This document shows positions 41,891-49,040 of a stretch of DNA of 64,000 bases, in pieces. The position numbers were made by a program, and so were the translations under genes. This DNA comes from Candidatus Latescibacterota bacterium (GTDB taxonomy: Bacteria; Latescibacterota; UBA2968; UBA8231): contig OZ242005.1 in NCBI GenBank assembly GCA_965204725.1, positions 4,816,079 to 4,880,078 of the forward strand. The letters run 5' to 3'. The notes beneath the pieces were generated by a model that was not told the origin of the DNA, did no database searches, and saw nothing but the letters and a program-made list of their open reading frames with translations. Within the stretch, counting starts at the first letter, position 1; each line of letters starts with the position of its first letter.

Positions 41891-42838
<948 letters not shown>

Positions 42839-43047
42839 TCAGGGTGATAAAGTATAGTCAAATTATCGTATTGGGCGTGAGGCGATACTAGACCAGCGTC
42901 CTCATTTCCCGCTGGCCATCGGGCACCCCTTGCCATTTAGCAAGAGCTCGACATAATAACTGTAGGCCGAACAACCGCCGAAAGCATCGGATAAGTTGCT
43001 CGCTGCGCTCCCGATTCGGCGCGGCGTTGAACGAACAGGAGCATGAC

Positions 43048-44226
43048 ATGACCAAGACCGTGATTCTCGATACGAATGTGCTTTACGATATAGGATTGAA
43101 TCGAGTCCGCGTTGAGGACGTCAGGCGGCCTAGAGAGCATCTCTGTTACTCTCCAATCTCAATTATTGAGTTGGTATCTAAACTAGATGGCGGGTCGTTT
43201 GCAGACCGAAAGGCAGCGGCTGGCGTTATCCTCAAGCACCGCATAGACGAACTCCCGGACCCCGAATCACATCTGACTACGGCATTTGGCTACAAGCTAG
43301 CGGAACCTGCCCCTTCATACTCCGACGCTGTCCGAGCCTTGGCTAAAGGTCAGAGCCTTGAAGAGGTGAGGCGCGGCGTACCAGACTACGAGGTTCGGGT
43401 CCGACGGAGCTTGAATGTACCGTTTGCAGCGACTTGGCGTGAGAAGGGTGAGCAAGAATGGGTGGATTCTCTCATCACCCTGATGGAGGATAATATCCCG
43501 GGGTTTCAAAAGTGGTACACAAAGGATCCAGCAAAACGGTTCTCGTCTGTGCCTAAACTTCGAGGAGAGGAGAAAGAGAGGTTTCTCGCCGGAATGAAGT
43601 CAAGAGAGTGGTCTGCTCGAATTATATCCGCTTGTCAGATGCGCGCCTTCTTCAAAGCGGACAAAAACGACCTCCGTGTATTTACTAAGCAGAGAGCAAA
43701 TGGATTAGCCGCGGCCATTCCCAAGATAGAGTGCTACTCCCATATATACACGCACTACTTGATTCGCCTAATGACTGAGGGGGTCTTACCCAAGAAGAAC
43801 GATAGCGGGGATATTGATTTCTTTCTCTACTCGACTGACGATGACCACGTCGTGGCGACCAAAGACAATAGGTGGATCAACATTGCGGAGGCCGCAGGGT
43901 TCGCCCGAAGGATACGCCGGCACGGATGCGAGCTCAGAGAAGCCGCATCGGCTGAAAGTCGGAATCGTCCAGAGGAGGAGGCCGCCAGATATGGCAATAT
44001 GGACTTTGAAGACTGCATTGAAATCCGACCCGGTGTTCGCAGTGGCAAGCCCTGTTTCAAAGGCACCCGAATTACGGTCTATGATGTATTGGAATACTTA
44101 GAGGGGGGGATGACGGAGGTTGAGCTTTTAGACGATTTTCCGACTCTGACACCGCAGCACATCCGCGCCGCCCGGGCCTTTGCCGATGCCCATAAACTTC
44201 AGTTCGCACCCGGTTCCACGGCGTGA
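43048..44226 (+). CDS. Fusion protein: roughly 320-aa PIN-like N-terminal domain + C-terminal DUF433 (COG2442) domain
   Basis: N-terminus MTKTVILDTNVLYD (PIN first Asp), SPISIIEL, GDIDFFLY and HVVATKDNRW (PIN last-strand-like). C-terminus IEIRPGVRSGKPCFKGTRITVYDVLEYLEGGMTEVELLDDFPTLTPQHIRAA is a typical DUF433 sequence. AGGAG lies 6 nt before ATG 43048. Confidence 0.6.
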   Translation: MTKTVILDTNVLYDIGLNRVRVEDVRRPREHLCYSPISIIELVSKLDGGSFADRKAAAGVILKHRIDELPDPESHLTTAFGYKLAEPAPSYSDAVRALAKGQSLEEVRRGVPDYEVRVRRSLNVPFAATWREKGEQEWVDSLITLMEDNIPGFQKWYTKDPAKRFSSVPKLRGEEKERFLAGMKSREWSARIISACQMRAFFKADKNDLRVFTKQRANGLAAAIPKIECYSHIYTHYLIRLMTEGVLPKKNDSGDIDFFLYSTDDDHVVATKDNRWINIAEAAGFARRIRRHGCELREAASAESRNRPEEEAARYGNMDFEDCIEIRPGVRSGKPCFKGTRITVYDVLEYLEGGMTEVELLDDFPTLTPQHIRAARAFADAHKLQFAPGSTA

Positions 44227-44594
44227 AACTGCTCCTTGACGAGAACCTTAGCCATCGGCTCGTTGCACGACTTGAGACATCTTTTCCCGGCACCGTCAGT
44301 GTCGATTATATTGGGCTTCACAGCCAGCCTGATATCGCTATTTGGGCTTATGCCGCCGCACAGGGCTTTGCAATTGTGTCGAAGGATGAGGACCTTCGTC
44401 AACTCAGTTTCTTCCGAGGCCATCCGCCAAAGGTAATATGGCTTAATGTGGGAAACGCTGGGACCGACCGGGTTGCGGACTTGTTGCTGTGGAACAAAGA
44501 TCGGATCATCGCTTTTCTCGGCCAGCGTGAAGACTCTCTTCTCACTCTAGAATCGAGACAATCTGCCGATTATTCAGTTATGAACCGCCAATAA
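44223..44594 (+). CDS. DUF5615 (COG4634) PIN-like/Mut7-C-type putative toxin
   Basis: N-terminus MKLLLDENLSHRLVARLETSFPG...AIVSKDEDL. Its GTG start overlaps the upstream stop (GTGA at 44223-44226). Confidence 0.7.
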   Translation: MKLLLDENLSHRLVARLETSFPGTVSVDYIGLHSQPDIAIWAYAAAQGFAIVSKDEDLRQLSFFRGHPPKVIWLNVGNAGTDRVADLLLWNKDRIIAFLGQREDSLLTLESRQSADYSVMNRQ

Positions 44595-44630
44595 TCTGTA
44601 CACCCCAAGAACTCATGGAGGAATAACACC

Positions 44631-44810
44631 ATGTGGCGCGATATCATCGTAGAAGAAATTCGCCGCAATCGTCAGGTGTATGCAGCAAAATTTCATCACG
44701 ACATCAAAGCGATCTGCCGCGCCGCCCGCGAGCAGCAAAGAAAAAGCGGGCACAAGATCGTTTCTTTGCCGCCGCGACCTGTCGCAACAGCTACGGAGGA
44801 TAGAGGATAA
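44631..44810 (+). CDS. 59-aa hypothetical protein (below the ORF-track cutoff)
   Basis: Hand translation gives MWRDIIVEEIRRNRQVYAAKFHHDIKAICRAAREQQRKSGHKIVSLPPRPVATATEDRG. GGAGGA lies upstream (ATGGAGGAATAACACCATG). It ends 4 nt before the likely start of the RM gene. Confidence 0.5.
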   Translation: MWRDIIVEEIRRNRQVYAAKFHHDIKAICRAAREQQRKSGHKIVSLPPRPVATATEDRG

Positions 44811-44814
44811 TTTT

Positions 44815-47800
44815 GTGAACCAAAGATCTATCTTCTCAACATATCTGAACGACCTGACCGCCGTCGTCCGGCAGGGCGACGCACGGGAGGAGAGCTTCTA
44901 CCCGGCACTGGCGGATATGCTCAGGGAAACGGCTCGCGCCACCGGGCGGACACACGTACACGTCACCACACTGCCCAAGCCCACTGAGGGCGGCAACCCG
45001 GACTTCCGGTTGTGGAATGGGACGGATCGCATCGTGGGCTATGTCGAGGCCAAGAAGCCGACGGAGGAGCGGTTGGATCTCGTCGAGAACTCCGAACAAC
45101 TCAAACGCTACCGTTCAACGTTTCCCAATCTCATCCTCACCAACTTTCTCGAGTTCCGCCTGTATCGCGATGGCGAGCGCGTGGACGCGGTCAGCGTTGG
45201 TCGGCCTTCGGTGCTCAACGCGCTGGGCACAACGCCGCCGCTGGAAAATCAAGCCGAACTCGCCGCTCTTCTCGACCGCTTTCTCGACTTTGCGCTGCCC
45301 TCGATGTTCACCGCCGAATCCTTCGCCGTTGAACTGGCAAAACGCACACGCCTGCTCCGCGATGTGATCGGCGAGCAGTTTGAGCAGGAACGCAACGCGC
45401 CCAAGATGCTCTCCGGTTTCTTCGAGGCGTTTCAGACTTATCTCATCGGGTCGCTGACAACGGACGATTTCGCCGATCTGTTCGCGCAGACGATAGCCTA
45501 CGGCCTGTTTGCCGCTCGCACTCGGGCTGGGGATGGATTCAACCGCCGCGTTGCGTTCGACAATATCCCACACACCATCGGCGTCTTGCGCGACCTGTTC
45601 CGCTACATCTCGCTCGACGAATTGCCCGCCCCACTCGCTTGGTGTGTGGATGACCTCGCCGAGGTGCTATCCGTGGCCGACGCGCCGGGCATTCTGGACA
45701 GCTACTACCGCGAGGGCAAGGGCGGCGATCCCATCGTGCATTTTTACGAGACGTTCTTGGCGCAATACGATCCCGACGAGCGCGAGCGGCGAGGGGTTTA
45801 TTACACGCCCGAACCGGTCGTTGGGTACATCGTCCGTTCCCTAAATGGCCTGCTCAAAACCGAATTTGACAAACGCGACGGCCTCGCTTCGGATGGCGTT
45901 ATGTTGCTCGATCCAGCAGCCGGGACGATGACCTTTGTCGCCCGTGCGGCGCAACAGGCGGTTGCCGAGTTTGAGGAGAAATACGGCAGTGGCGGCCGGG
46001 CGGACTTCATCCGTCGGCACATCCTTGAGAATTTCTACGCGCTGGAGTTGATGATGGCTCCTTACGCGGTCGGCCATCTCAAGATGAGCTTCTTCTTAGA
46101 GGAACTCGGGCACCGCCTCGCCGATGACGAGCGGGTGCCCTTTTATCTCACAAATACGCTCGACATGGAGGAACTAGAGGAAAGCCGGTTGCCCGGCCTG
46201 TCCGCACTGGCCGAGGAGTCCCGTTTGGCTGGCGCGGTTAAGAAACAGACGCCGATCTTGGTCATCTTGGGCAATCCGCCCTATTCGGGGCATTCGAGCA
46301 ACACAGGCGATTGGATTACGGAGTTAATCAACGATTACAAGCAGGTGGATGGAGAGCCGTTGGGAGAGAGAAATCTGAAATGGTTGCAAGATGACTATGT
46401 CAAGTTCCTACGTTTTGCCCAGTGGAAAGTAGAACAAGCCGGTCGCGGCGTCGTGGGGATGATCACCAACCACAGTTATCTCGATAACCCGACGTTTCGC
46501 GGGATGCGACAGAGTCTGATGCAGACTTTCGATGACATTTACATCCTCGACTTGCACGGCAATTCGCTGAAAAAGGAAACCAGTCCAGATGGTAGCCCTG
46601 ATCAAAATGTCTTTGACATCCGGCAAGGCGTGGCCATCGCCTTTTTCGTCAAGCGCGGCGAAGGTCGAGAATCGGAAGCCGTCGTCCAGCACGCCGAATG
46701 TTACGGAATGCGGGAGAGCAAGTATGAACGGCTCGACGCCCATGACCTCGGTAGCACCAAATGGCAACAAATAAATCCAGCATCGCCGTTCTATCTGTTC
46801 GTGCCCCGCGACGCCGCGCTTGAAGCCGAGTATCGTCGGTTCCTTTCTATTCCCGAAGTATTTTCTATCTCCGAAGTATTTCCGATCAACAGCGTCGGCG
46901 TTGTAACCGCCCGCGACCGTCTGACAATCCATTGGTCTGAGCAAGAGACATGGGATACGGTGCGGGCTTTTTTAGAGATGGACCCGGAACTAGCTCGGCA
47001 GGGATATAAACTCGGCGACGATACGCAAGAGTGGAAAGTGACGATGGCGCAAAAGGACTTGCGGGATTCCGGCCCGAAACGTGAGAATGTGATTCCGCTC
47101 CTGTATCGGCCCTTTGACGTGCGCCATACCTATTACACCGGCCACTCGCGGGGATTCATCTGTAGGCCCCGTTCCGAAGTCATGCGGCACATGTTGGCTG
47201 GGGGGAATCTGGCGTTGTGTGTTGGGCGTCAAGGGCAGGTTATCGGCGCGGGCGAGTGGAATTTGGTCTATTGCTCGCAGAACATAGGGGATCTTAACTT
47301 GTTCTACCGCGGCGGAAACGTGAACTTCCCTCTCTACCTCTATCCCACCGCTGACCGCGACGACCTTTTCGCGCAACACGAATCGTCCGAGCGTCAGCCG
47401 AATCTGAGTCCCAAACTGGTTGAGATGCTTGAGGAAGCACATGGTCAAGCGCCCTCGCCCGAAGCGATCTTTTACTACACATATTCAGTCTTGCACGCGC
47501 CTGCGTACCGCGAGAAATACGCCGAATTTCTGCGGATCGATTTCCCCCGCATCCCGTTCACAAAGGACAGCGCGTTGTTCGCCAAACTCGCCGAACTCGG
47601 TGAGCGATTGGTCGGCCTACACCTGCTCACGTCGCCCGAACTCGACCCACCGGCCTGTCGCTTTGACGGCGAAGGCGACGCGGTTGTCGCACGGACGAAG
47701 GCGCAGGGCTTTCGCTATGACGCCGATGAGCAACGCATGTACGTCAACAAGACGCAGTACTTCGGCCCCGTCCCCCCAGCGGTTTACGCCTACCCCATCG

Positions 47801-48006
47801 GCGGCTACCAAGTCTGCAACAAATGGTTGAAAGATCGCAAAGATCGCCGCCTCACCCTCGACGACATCCGCACCTACTGCCGGATGGTAACAGCCATCGG
47901 GCTGACGCTCGATATTCAGCAAGAACTTGACGTGGTATATGGCGGTGTGGAGAATAGCTGTGTGTCGGTTGGGGCCGAAACAATCACCGAAAGGGGCTTG
48001 ACATGA
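44815..48006 (+). CDS. Single-chain restriction-modification enzyme, MmeI-like (type IIL/IIG): PD-(D/E)XK nuclease + gamma-class N6-adenine methyltransferase + C-terminal specificity region
   Basis: Contains GNPDFRLW...VGYVEAKKP (a D-x13-ExK nuclease motif), LLDPAAGTMTF (SAM motif I) and ILGNPPYSG (motif IV NPPY). The C-terminal LHAPAYREKYAEFLRIDFPRIPF block is seen in type ISP/PglX/MmeI-like proteins. I moved the start to GTG 44815, because the track start at 44680 overlaps the 59-aa ORF in another frame. Confidence 0.65.
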   Translation: MNQRSIFSTYLNDLTAVVRQGDAREESFYPALADMLRETARATGRTHVHVTTLPKPTEGGNPDFRLWNGTDRIVGYVEAKKPTEERLDLVENSEQLKRYRSTFPNLILTNFLEFRLYRDGERVDAVSVGRPSVLNALGTTPPLENQAELAALLDRFLDFALPSMFTAESFAVELAKRTRLLRDVIGEQFEQERNAPKMLSGFFEAFQTYLIGSLTTDDFADLFAQTIAYGLFAARTRAGDGFNRRVAFDNIPHTIGVLRDLFRYISLDELPAPLAWCVDDLAEVLSVADAPGILDSYYREGKGGDPIVHFYETFLAQYDPDERERRGVYYTPEPVVGYIVRSLNGLLKTEFDKRDGLASDGVMLLDPAAGTMTFVARAAQQAVAEFEEKYGSGGRADFIRRHILENFYALELMMAPYAVGHLKMSFFLEELGHRLADDERVPFYLTNTLDMEELEESRLPGLSALAEESRLAGAVKKQTPILVILGNPPYSGHSSNTGDWITELINDYKQVDGEPLGERNLKWLQDDYVKFLRFAQWKVEQAGRGVVGMITNHSYLDNPTFRGMRQSLMQTFDDIYILDLHGNSLKKETSPDGSPDQNVFDIRQGVAIAFFVKRGEGRESEAVVQHAECYGMRESKYERLDAHDLGSTKWQQINPASPFYLFVPRDAALEAEYRRFLSIPEVFSISEVFPINSVGVVTARDRLTIHWSEQETWDTVRAFLEMDPELARQGYKLGDDTQEWKVTMAQKDLRDSGPKRENVIPLLYRPFDVRHTYYTGHSRGFICRPRSEVMRHMLAGGNLALCVGRQGQVIGAGEWNLVYCSQNIGDLNLFYRGGNVNFPLYLYPTADRDDLFAQHESSERQPNLSPKLVEMLEEAHGQAPSPEAIFYYTYSVLHAPAYREKYAEFLRIDFPRIPFTKDSALFAKLAELGERLVGLHLLTSPELDPPACRFDGEGDAVVARTKAQGFRYDADEQRMYVNKTQYFGPVPPAVYAYPIGGYQVCNKWLKDRKDRRLTLDDIRTYCRMVTAIGLTLDIQQELDVVYGGVENSCVSVGAETITERGLT

Positions 48007-48125
48007 TCACGCAACAGAAGGTATGGAACAGCCGGAAATGTTGCGCTGGGACTAGACATGCCATAGAGGAGTCTAAATTTATTTTTACCTTAAACTAACG
48101 GCTTTTCTGCTTTCTTTCCCTTCTC

Positions 48126-49040
48126 ATGCCCTTTCGTCGAGCCTCCGCCCCCACGCCAACCTGCTACCGCGACCGCCGAACCGGGGCGATAGTCGAAGAG
48201 CGCGTTCCGGGGGAGTCGCTCCTCCGCTGGTTCTACGGCACGAGCACGGGGCATCTTGTTTTTCGCGCTGTCCTCAACCGGCCCCTTTGCTCTCGCCTCT
48301 ATGGCTGGTGGCAGCAAAGCCCTTGGACCCGGCGTCAAATCCGCCGCTTTGTCGAGCACTACCGCATTGACCTCGACGAAATCGAACATCCTCTCAGCCA
48401 CTATTCGAGCTTCAACGACTTTTTCATTCGCCGCCTCAAGCCCGGCGCTAGGCCCTGCGACCCCGACCCCAAGCGCCTGTGTTGCCCAGCCGATGGCAAG
48501 GTTCTCGTCTATCCGCAGCTCGCAGCCGAGGAGGGGTTGCCGGTCAAAAGCAGCCAACTCTCAGCCTGTGCGCTCCTAGCCGCAGCAATCGATCCCACCC
48601 CGTATCGCGGCGGTTCCGCCCTCGTCGTGCGTCTCGCCCCCTACGACTATCACCGCTTCCACTTTCCAGCCGACGGCCAAGTCAGTCAGACGCAGTGGAT
48701 CGACGGCACTTACCACTCGGTCAATCCAATCGCCCTCGCCCGCGTACCCGATGTTTTCCACCGCAACCGGCGCTCGGTCTGCGAGCTGGCGACGCCCGCC
48801 TTCGGCAGGATTGCCTATATCGAGGTCGGGGCCATCAACGTCGCCAGCATCGTCCAGACGCATTCGATAGGGCCTTGTGAGCGCGGCCAAGAAAAGGGCT
48901 TTTTCCAGTTCGGCGGCTCGACCGTGGTGCTGCTTTTTGAGCCGGGGGCGATTGCCTTTGACAGCGACCTAGTGGCCGACTCCGCGGCTGGCCTAGAGGT
49001 ACACGTCCGCACCGGGGCCGGCGTCGGGGACCGCGCTTGA
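48126..49040 (+). CDS. psd: Phosphatidylserine decarboxylase proenzyme
   Basis: Contains YDYHRFHFP and the self-cleavage region FQFGGSTVVLLFE (GST motif). Confidence 0.85.
   Translation: MPFRRASAPTPTCYRDRRTGAIVEERVPGESLLRWFYGTSTGHLVFRAVLNRPLCSRLYGWWQQSPWTRRQIRRFVEHYRIDLDEIEHPLSHYSSFNDFFIRRLKPGARPCDPDPKRLCCPADGKVLVYPQLAAEEGLPVKSSQLSACALLAAAIDPTPYRGGSALVVRLAPYDYHRFHFPADGQVSQTQWIDGTYHSVNPIALARVPDVFHRNRRSVCELATPAFGRIAYIEVGAINVASIVQTHSIGPCERGQEKGFFQFGGSTVVLLFEPGAIAFDSDLVADSAAGLEVHVRTGAGVGDRA

Follow-up and report, generated by a model that had tools for sequence, protein, structure and literature searches.

A putative DUF433/DUF5615 toxin-antitoxin module with its antitoxin domain tethered to a PIN-like protein in Candidatus Latescibacterota

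In a 64,000-nucleotide stretch of contig OZ242005.1 from a Candidatus Latescibacterota bacterium (hereafter the window, to which all positions refer unless a locus is named), we analyzed two overlapping genes located between hemF and psd. The first codes for a 392-amino-acid (aa) protein composed of a PIN-like N-terminal domain (N-domain), a linker and a C-terminal DUF433 domain; the second codes for a 123-aa protein of the DUF5615 family. In the interpretation that we favour, with appreciable reserve, the two genes form a type II DUF433/DUF5615 toxin-antitoxin module in which a tether links the antitoxin to an autonomous PIN-like nuclease. The DUF5615 protein is found intact only together with DUF433, and the N-domain belongs to a family of its own, whose members were found as separate proteins or, in a single clade, with the DUF433 tail.

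Results

The DUF433 tail and its DUF5615 partner

The earlier note on this DNA, prepared from the letters and without database searches, had assigned the C-terminus of the fusion to DUF433 and its partner to DUF5615, and both assignments were borne out by profile searches. PF04255 matched residues 324-379 of the fusion with an E-value (E) of 8.9e-22 (77.1 bits vs a cut-off of 23.6), and PF18480 matched the 123-aa protein with E = 8.4e-27 (93.7 bits vs a cut-off of 23.8); the match of the latter protein to PIN_10 was weaker and sub-threshold. The tail resembled the solved DUF433 family member of PDB entry 2ga1, both by sequence profile (3.1e-4) and in a Foldseek comparison (E = 2.1e-3, probability 1.0, root-mean-square deviation of 2.0 A over 64 columns for chain B), as well as Rv2018 (5af3, Foldseek probability 0.99). 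In the DUF5615 family, D6, D37, D55 and the PPK motif were invariant in 27 relatives, and all of them are kept in the window protein. The translational coupling of the two genes, also proposed earlier, can be read directly in the sequence: the TGA stop codon of the fusion (44224-44226) overlaps the GTG start codon of the DUF5615 gene (44223) to form GTGA. An overlap of this type was seen again in relatives, where the toxin match opens at the base that closes the fusion match.

Among 168 Latescibacterota genomes, DUF433 was located directly upstream of all 28 intact DUF5615 homologues. DUF5615 lacked an upstream DUF433 in two cases only, and both were truncated toxins: in one, residues 12-72 had been joined to the N-domain by a deletion, and in the other, the first 31 residues had been lost. 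This comparison shows the DUF5615 toxin to be dependent on DUF433, as judged from the co-occurrence of the genes. The overall pattern is that of a toxin-antitoxin module, with an intact toxin never found without DUF433, an antitoxin sometimes found alone, and a patchy, accessory distribution. In the locus L011/L193 (genome G140), where the N-domain is joined to DUF5615 residues 12-72, DUF433 and the first catalytic Asp had been removed together; in L007, the DUF5615 match was split into three fragments.

The source genome is rich in toxin-antitoxin genes, with 22 VapC-type PIN genes (PF01850), 8 DUF433 genes and 3 DUF5615 genes, and it carries two further, ordinary short DUF433+DUF5615 pairs. 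The relatives found in the phylum at 42-65% identity are ordinary short pairs as well. A survey of DUF433 fusions by word-indexed search returned mostly the clade described here; DUF433 was also found fused to Lactamase_B, short-chain dehydrogenase, DEAD/ResIII and DUF5615 domains. Neither the fusion nor the DUF5615 protein had a match in NCBIfam or PADLOC, and we rejected a known defence system on the basis of the PADLOC result.

Conservation of the fusion

A search of 5.8 billion proteins revealed 104 full-length relatives of the fusion (372-501 aa, 62-99% identity), nearly all of which contain DUF433. According to the genome records, they come from Candidatus Latescibacterota, closed chromosomes included. 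In the 168 genomes mentioned above, the N-domain was present in 30, in a single copy each and in 6 of 49 genera, and 3 of these copies were visibly decayed. The N-domain and DUF433 are both under purifying selection: the ratio of nonsynonymous to synonymous substitution rates (dN/dS), computed pairwise over 14 genes, was 0.13 both in the first PIN-like segment and in DUF433, 0.15 in the insert and 0.12 in the last PIN-like segment, and reached 0.48 in the linker. The AlphaFold2 model of the 392-aa protein, with a predicted local distance difference test (pLDDT) score of 84.6, consisted of two folded domains and a disordered stretch between them (residues 294-317), and the alignment indicated that this linker is duplicated or extended in the relatives of 420-428 aa. 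In the searchable literature, we found neither the fusion architecture nor the N-domain family described.

The N-terminal domain

The N-domain, earlier put at roughly 320 aa, turned out to comprise about 293 aa, the remainder being the disordered linker of ~25 aa. The motifs ILDTNVL, SIIEL, GDIDFF and VVATKDNRW, to which the earlier note had drawn attention, are present and coincide with the columns that are best conserved in the family. In 58 diverse N-domain homologues, E41 and D252 were invariant, and D8, T9, N10, R54, R199, Y230, Y234, Y237, N251, D255, Y261, T271 and W276 were conserved in at least 90%. Within the fusion clade, E41 was kept in 109/111 sequences, D252 in 112/113, D255 in 109/113 and T271 in 112/113, position 273 was acidic in 105/113, and position 8 was occupied by D in 65 and by E in 44 of 109 sequences.

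The Pfam PIN profile matched residues 5-82 of the window protein below its cut-off (E = 0.005, 17.8 bits vs 23.6), and 21 of the 58 family members matched PF01850, the best of them with 1.1e-6. When hhalign was used to align the family profile with one built from 19 VapC proteins of this genome, the first ~47 residues were matched with a probability of 81-89% and E from 2.5e-6 to 1.2e-5. Only in a forced global alignment, and with low confidence, did the N-D-x-G-D motif and the following T-x-D/E and W come to lie opposite the third Asp and the T-x-D-x-x-F motif of VapC. Removal of the insert before the hhalign comparison did not lengthen the significant part of the alignment.

In the AlphaFold2 model, DSSP assigned a strand at residues 4-7, helices, a strand at 31-34, the E41 helix, another helix and a short strand at 67-68, followed by the helical insert of ~180 aa (pLDDT mostly above 85), a helix at 252-260, a strand at 267-270, a helix and a short strand near 288-290. 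This predicted order is the one expected of a split PIN core, and residues 251-293 are proposed, from their motifs and from the model, to be its C-terminal half. The model of a stand-alone homologue, built from an independent alignment, had the same order of elements (pLDDT 95.6, predicted TM-score 0.91). For both models the top Foldseek ranks were occupied by PIN proteins (1o4w/AF0591, SMG6/EST1A, VapC, Utp24 and T5 exonuclease), and the comparison of the window model with 1o4w gave E = 0.068 and a probability of 0.98. The model of the stand-alone homologue had no significant Foldseek match in the PDB despite its high pLDDT, which indicates that the fold of the whole N-domain has no close solved relative. 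The insert (residues 72-250) matched neither a profile in hhalign nor a fold in Foldseek, and no Pfam, NCBIfam, PADLOC or PHROG model covers the N-domain.

That the N-domain represents a PIN-like family of nucleases interrupted by a large insert, as the earlier note had proposed, is well supported by the alignments for the N-terminal half and for the acidic signature of D/E8, E41, D252/D255 and D/E273, which is conserved in the homologues. The complete PIN fold is not statistically proven and is demonstrated in part, the N-terminal half by profile and the C-terminal half by motifs and predicted topology.

A stand-alone family that precedes the fusion

In an exhaustive HMMER search of 1.84 billion representative sequences, residues 1-291 matched dozens of stand-alone proteins of 270-300 aa with 24-45% identity, which form dozens of clusters at 50% identity. 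The N-domain is therefore an independent protein family and not an outgrowth of DUF433. Its origin had been described the other way round, as a domain acquired by a DUF433 protein; instead, a pre-existing, widespread family of ~290 aa gained the DUF433 tail, once, in Latescibacterota.

In ~50 metagenome loci of the stand-alone family we observed no recurrent neighbouring gene family, the only clusters of neighbours being due to duplicate contigs, and a conserved partner or antitoxin of the stand-alone N-domain was rejected on this basis. The 140 open reading frames (ORFs) adjacent to these genes included HipA, AbiEii, GmrSD, HNH, Mokosh-type helicases, PD-T4-6-type kinases and STAND NTPases, as well as a Mu-like head protein, a transposase and housekeeping genes. 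This list, which stands without a background comparison, suggests that the family sits in variable or defence regions. We found no relative of the N-domain on viral contigs, PHROG contained nothing for the N-domain or the toxin and BFVD nothing useful; a phage origin was rejected.

Several neighbours were recorded along the way. In L048 (2559-3908 and 4871-6112), a stand-alone relative is located between a GmrSD/HNH-type protein and a 414-aa protein with no Pfam match, the arrangement in L051 is similar, and a cyclase-like protein precedes the stand-alone relative in L052. A family of 240-317 aa with the motif FRGGIxYG and no Pfam match occurs downstream (L163, 3926-4645) or upstream (L165, 560-1513) of a tail-less N-domain.

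Natural deletions and exchanges

Comparison of related loci showed that the parts of the module are separable. Residues ~6-305 are deleted in frame in L161, where MTKTV is joined to VKEKAARYG and a DUF433 protein of ~90 aa remains next to DUF5615, and in L152 an out-of-frame deletion within the N-domain left DUF433 and DUF5615. The fusion was intact and the toxin gone in L001, L009, L170 and L171, about half of the genomes bearing the N-domain had no closely related DUF5615, and DUF433 was found alone in L014/L147. N-domains with intact motifs and no tail were seen in P0096 and P0097, which are nested in the fusion clade, and in P0102 and P0103 of the sister clade. In the tree, the DUF433 fusion was monophyletic and the tail-less forms were secondary. 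Since tail-less intact copies exist and the stand-alone family lacks a conserved partner, the N-domain seems to have no need for DUF433, and judging from these gene arrangements it would depend on neither DUF433 nor DUF5615.

The C-terminal module has also been duplicated and exchanged. In L168 and L169 (genomes G090 and G076, about 1130-2980 when read in the N-domain orientation), relatives of 501 aa contain a tandem of two unlike DUF433 domains, and the next gene codes for a 109-aa DUF5615 protein of a different subtype (8.7e-7); in L170 the second type of DUF433 is a separate 91-aa gene located upstream. In the sister clade of all DUF433 fusions (L013, 6001-7529; L165, 1693-3232; also L166 and L167), the N-domain is followed after 26 bp by a 75-aa protein and an overlapping gene for a retropepsin-like aspartyl protease of 127 aa (PF13650, 5.4e-11); in L013, the N-domain is fused to the 75-aa module and the protease gene overlaps by ATGA. 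The 75-aa protein bears a weak resemblance to DUF5678 (E = 0.11). The 75-aa protein with the retropepsin-like protease looks like an undescribed toxin-antitoxin-like module.

Locus layout and the hemF-psd hotspot

Coordinates of the features are summarized in Table 1. We take the ATG, and not the upstream TTG, as the start of the fusion gene, because an AGGAG ribosome-binding site (43037-43041) precedes it with a spacing of 6 nt and the homologues begin with MTKTV or MAKTV throughout. The block with the candidate promoter and the inverted repeat is kept upstream of orthologous genes in L001, L003, L004 and L013. The repeat is a possible operator; in L013, where the block is also retained, the tail is not DUF433. 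For the restriction-modification gene, the long ORF starts at 44680, but the alignment of relatives sets in only at residue ~41, so that the true start is probably the GTG codon at 44815, just past the 59-aa ORF.

Table 1. Features of the locus in the window
Feature	Position	Strand	Remarks
hemF	41891-42805	-	upstream neighbour of the fusion gene
Inverted repeat CTTGC-N6-GCAAG	42929-42944		overlaps the candidate promoter; possible operator
Candidate promoter TTGCCA-16 nt-CATAAT	42930-42957	+	consensus scan, 10/12 positions match
Fusion gene	43048-44226	+	ORF of 392 aa: PIN-like N-domain, linker, DUF433
N-domain, residues 1-71	43048-43260	+	PIN-type N-terminal half: strand-D/E8-T9-N10, strand, helix with E41, R54
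N-domain, residues 72-250	43261-43797	+	mostly helical insert of ~180 aa; conserved R199, Y230, Y234, Y237
N-domain, residues 251-293	43798-43926	+	N251-D252-S-G-D255 helix, strand, T271-x-D273, W276; proposed C-terminal half of PIN core
Linker, residues 294-317	43927-43998	+	pLDDT below 50
DUF433 (COG2442), residues 318-392	43999-44223	+	antitoxin-type winged-helix domain
DUF5615 gene	44223-44594	+	123 aa, GTG start; COG4634, Mut7-C-type reduced PIN; predicted RNase toxin
59-aa ORF	44631-44810	+	between toxin and restriction-modification gene; outside the conserved module
Type IIG restriction-modification enzyme	44815-48006	+	PADLOC REase_MTase_IIG 1.2e-246; Pfam Type_ISP_C 2.4e-88
psd	48126-49040		downstream of the restriction-modification gene

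The 59-aa ORF is missing from L002, an orthologous locus with the fusion, the toxin and the restriction-modification gene. Members of its family (…IVEE[IV][HR]…) were recorded in L163 (2805-3008), L164 (2811-2987), L010 (5331-5462) and L012 (5204-5293). In the tail-less relatives L163 and L164 such a gene immediately precedes the N-domain gene, and in L163 the two overlap by 8 bp. This small protein may be either an N-domain partner or merely a further cargo of the hotspot.

In the segment from 42.8 to 48.1 kb, the GC content is 0.49-0.55 in the pair and 0.52-0.61 in the restriction-modification gene, and 0.60-0.66 in the flanks. We surveyed the slot between hemF and psd (42806-48125 in the window) in 20 other genomes of the genus (L143-L162). 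It was empty in five; four contained other cargo of 1-1.6 kb, another small two-gene pair included, and four the restriction-modification gene alone, damaged in two of them. DUF433 alone, the N-domain-deleted pair, and the N-domain-deleted pair with the restriction-modification gene were found once each. The fusion with the toxin occupied the slot in two genomes, the fusion and toxin followed by the restriction-modification gene in one, and in another the restriction-modification gene came first. The cargo of L145 is a pair of 87 aa and 178 aa, and that of L149 a 296-aa protein with a small protein of 75 aa.

The variation in presence, absence and order across the 20 slots indicates that the restriction-modification gene is an independent tenant of the hotspot. 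It does adjoin the pair between hemF and psd, as had been pointed out, but the functional grouping suggested by this proximity did not hold, since the restriction-modification gene was found alone four times and the pair three times without it. A composite restriction-modification and toxin-antitoxin system was rejected, as the two were together in only 3/20 slots, one of them in the opposite order.

Discussion

In the mechanism that we propose, the 123-aa DUF5615 protein would be the toxin; the analogy with Rv2019 and VapC10 suggests that it is most likely a Mg-dependent RNase. The last 75 residues of the fusion would act as the antitoxin that neutralizes DUF5615 and probably also as a DNA-binding autoregulator of the operon. 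Instead of being a free protein of 70-90 aa, this antitoxin would be tethered by the flexible linker of ~25 aa to an otherwise autonomous protein of ~293 aa. The N-domain itself would be an independent metal-dependent nuclease, probably related to conflict or defence, and not a second toxin under the control of DUF433. With nuclease and antitoxin on one polypeptide, the ratio between them would be fixed and the nuclease would come under the autoregulation of the antitoxin, effects that may be why the fusion was selected. Loss of the whole gene would free the toxin, which amounts to addiction at the level of the gene.

The pair joins a class with experimental precedents. The location of DUF433/COG2442 upstream of a PIN-like gene was predicted to represent a toxin-antitoxin class in 2009 by Makarova et al. 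(PMC2701414), and such pairs are more than the computational prediction as which the earlier note presented them, as VapBC10 and Rv2018/Rv2019 have been tested experimentally. VapC10 of Synechocystis PCC 6803 (VapBC10, ssr2962/slr1767) arrests E. coli, and the DUF433 protein VapB10 neutralizes it and binds the promoter (PMC3834315). Rv2019 of M. tuberculosis cuts rRNA and mRNA and is neutralized by the multi-domain DUF433 protein Rv2018 (VapBC45, PMC5175181). The pair in the window, known from sequence alone, shares with VapBC45 and VapBC10 a DUF433 antitoxin domain upstream of, and coupled to, a small PIN-like toxin. Its putative toxin differs from Rv2019 and VapC10 in having its best match in DUF5615, with PIN_10 below threshold. 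Like Rv2018, the fusion is a multi-domain DUF433 protein, but the extra domain of Rv2018 is described as a winged helix-turn-helix (PMC2701414), whereas here it is a 293-aa PIN-like protein that is also found alone. Matelska et al. in 2017 assigned COG4634 and PIN_10 to Mut7-C, a reduced group among the PIN-like domains, and the text of that study names no cluster that could be matched to the N-domain (PMC5499597).

With the canonical short DUF433+DUF5615 pairs, the genes described here have both families, the gene order and the overlap in common; the difference is that in this subclade a 392-aa protein carries the antitoxin as its C-terminal tail. The N-domain in turn shares with VapC (PF01850) the strand-D-T-N motif, the Glu helix, four conserved acidic positions and the alternating order of strands and helices, with the last two acidic motifs predicted on a helix and after a strand. 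Unlike VapC, its core is split by the helical insert and its stand-alone family has no adjacent antitoxin. EzeT and CapRel are single-chain toxin-antitoxin proteins, in which the two parts are fused. The protein in the window is similar to them in that one polypeptide unites an antitoxin-type domain with a domain resembling a nuclease or toxin, and differs in having its own cognate toxin gene downstream and an N-domain that occurs naturally without the tail.

Several observations weigh against our interpretation. The C-terminal half of the putative PIN core had no significant alignment to PIN profiles in hhalign, and the Foldseek matches to PIN proteins were not significant either (best E 0.068 and 0.39, TM-scores 0.2-0.4). 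As the profile and fold matches fall short, the label of a nuclease is drawn from the acidic motifs and the predicted topology. In 40% of the fusion-clade sequences (44/109) the first acidic residue is Glu and not Asp, and this might mean reduced or altered catalysis. The DUF433 tail is kept even where the toxin is gone (L001, L009 and L171), so that it may also serve the N-domain, in DNA binding, oligomerization or regulation, and the parts are perhaps not fully independent. Finally, internal deletions of the N-domain do occur (L161, L152), and addiction at the level of the gene gives no protection from them.

Alternatively, the whole operon may be an anti-phage defence that works by abortive infection, an explanation to which we give a low, though not trivial, probability. 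The N-domain would then sense a phage cue or cut phage nucleic acid and control the antitoxin tail through the linker, so that infection would release DUF5615 and the cell would shut down. The frequent location of stand-alone relatives beside defence or mobile genes is in keeping with this, as are the restriction-modification and toxin-antitoxin cargo gathered by the same hotspot and the attachment of two unrelated antitoxin-type modules to the same N-domain; regulation of linked defence genes by a toxin-antitoxin pair is documented for Pez-Ham (PMC13064477). On the other hand, the N-domain had no match in PADLOC or PHROG, and any enrichment of defence neighbours is tentative. Moreover, about half of the fusions have no toxin, which would be intolerable for a defence that depends on it.

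The N-domain could also be a second PIN toxin, held in cis by the DUF433 domain that neutralizes DUF5615 in trans, after the fashion of single-chain fusions like EzeT or CapRel, in which case the loss or proteolysis of the tail would release two nucleases. We consider this arrangement of two toxins with a single antidote very doubtful. Residues of the catalytic type are kept in the N-domain under purifying selection, the DUF433 tail is retained in loci with no DUF5615, and the sister clade has another antitoxin-like small protein at the same position, all of which would fit such an arrangement. The persistence of intact tail-less N-domains and the large stand-alone family with no conserved antitoxin-like neighbour speak against it; the disordered linker, in addition, gives no sign of a fixed arrangement of the domains. 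The idea of two nucleases with one antitoxin, put forward in the earlier note, is therefore unsupported by the tail-less copies and by the partnerless stand-alone family.

That two separate genes were merged by an artefact of assembly, frameshift or gene calling is a negligible possibility and was rejected, because the identical uninterrupted frame is shared by more than 100 independent clusters (387-501 aa) from many assemblies, closed chromosomes among them, and dN/dS is well under 1 across the linker and both domains, which are in frame; the fusion as originally described stands.

If the antitoxin is indeed tethered to an autonomous PIN-like nuclease, one may go further and see antitoxin tails as a general 'addiction handle', given a PIN-like family joined at its C-terminus to two unrelated antidote-type modules. 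We regard this extension as rather unlikely. It could be imagined, with equally little confidence, that the nuclease, were it a defence effector, acts first, and that when the protein is destroyed or its synthesis blocked, the antitoxin is lost with it, leaving the second nuclease to kill or arrest the cell. If true, this would be an undescribed coupling of an immune effector to a suicide back-up, stabilizing costly defence genes.

The toxin-antitoxin pair as such is ordinary. What is new is a sizeable PIN-like family of ~290 aa with a large helical insert, which has no library model and no solved relative, and a clean natural case of an antitoxin domain grafted onto another protein, whose variants reveal how the parts depend on each other. 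If the tether is functional, in co-regulation, addiction or as a back-up of defence, it would bear on the purpose of chromosomal toxin-antitoxin modules.

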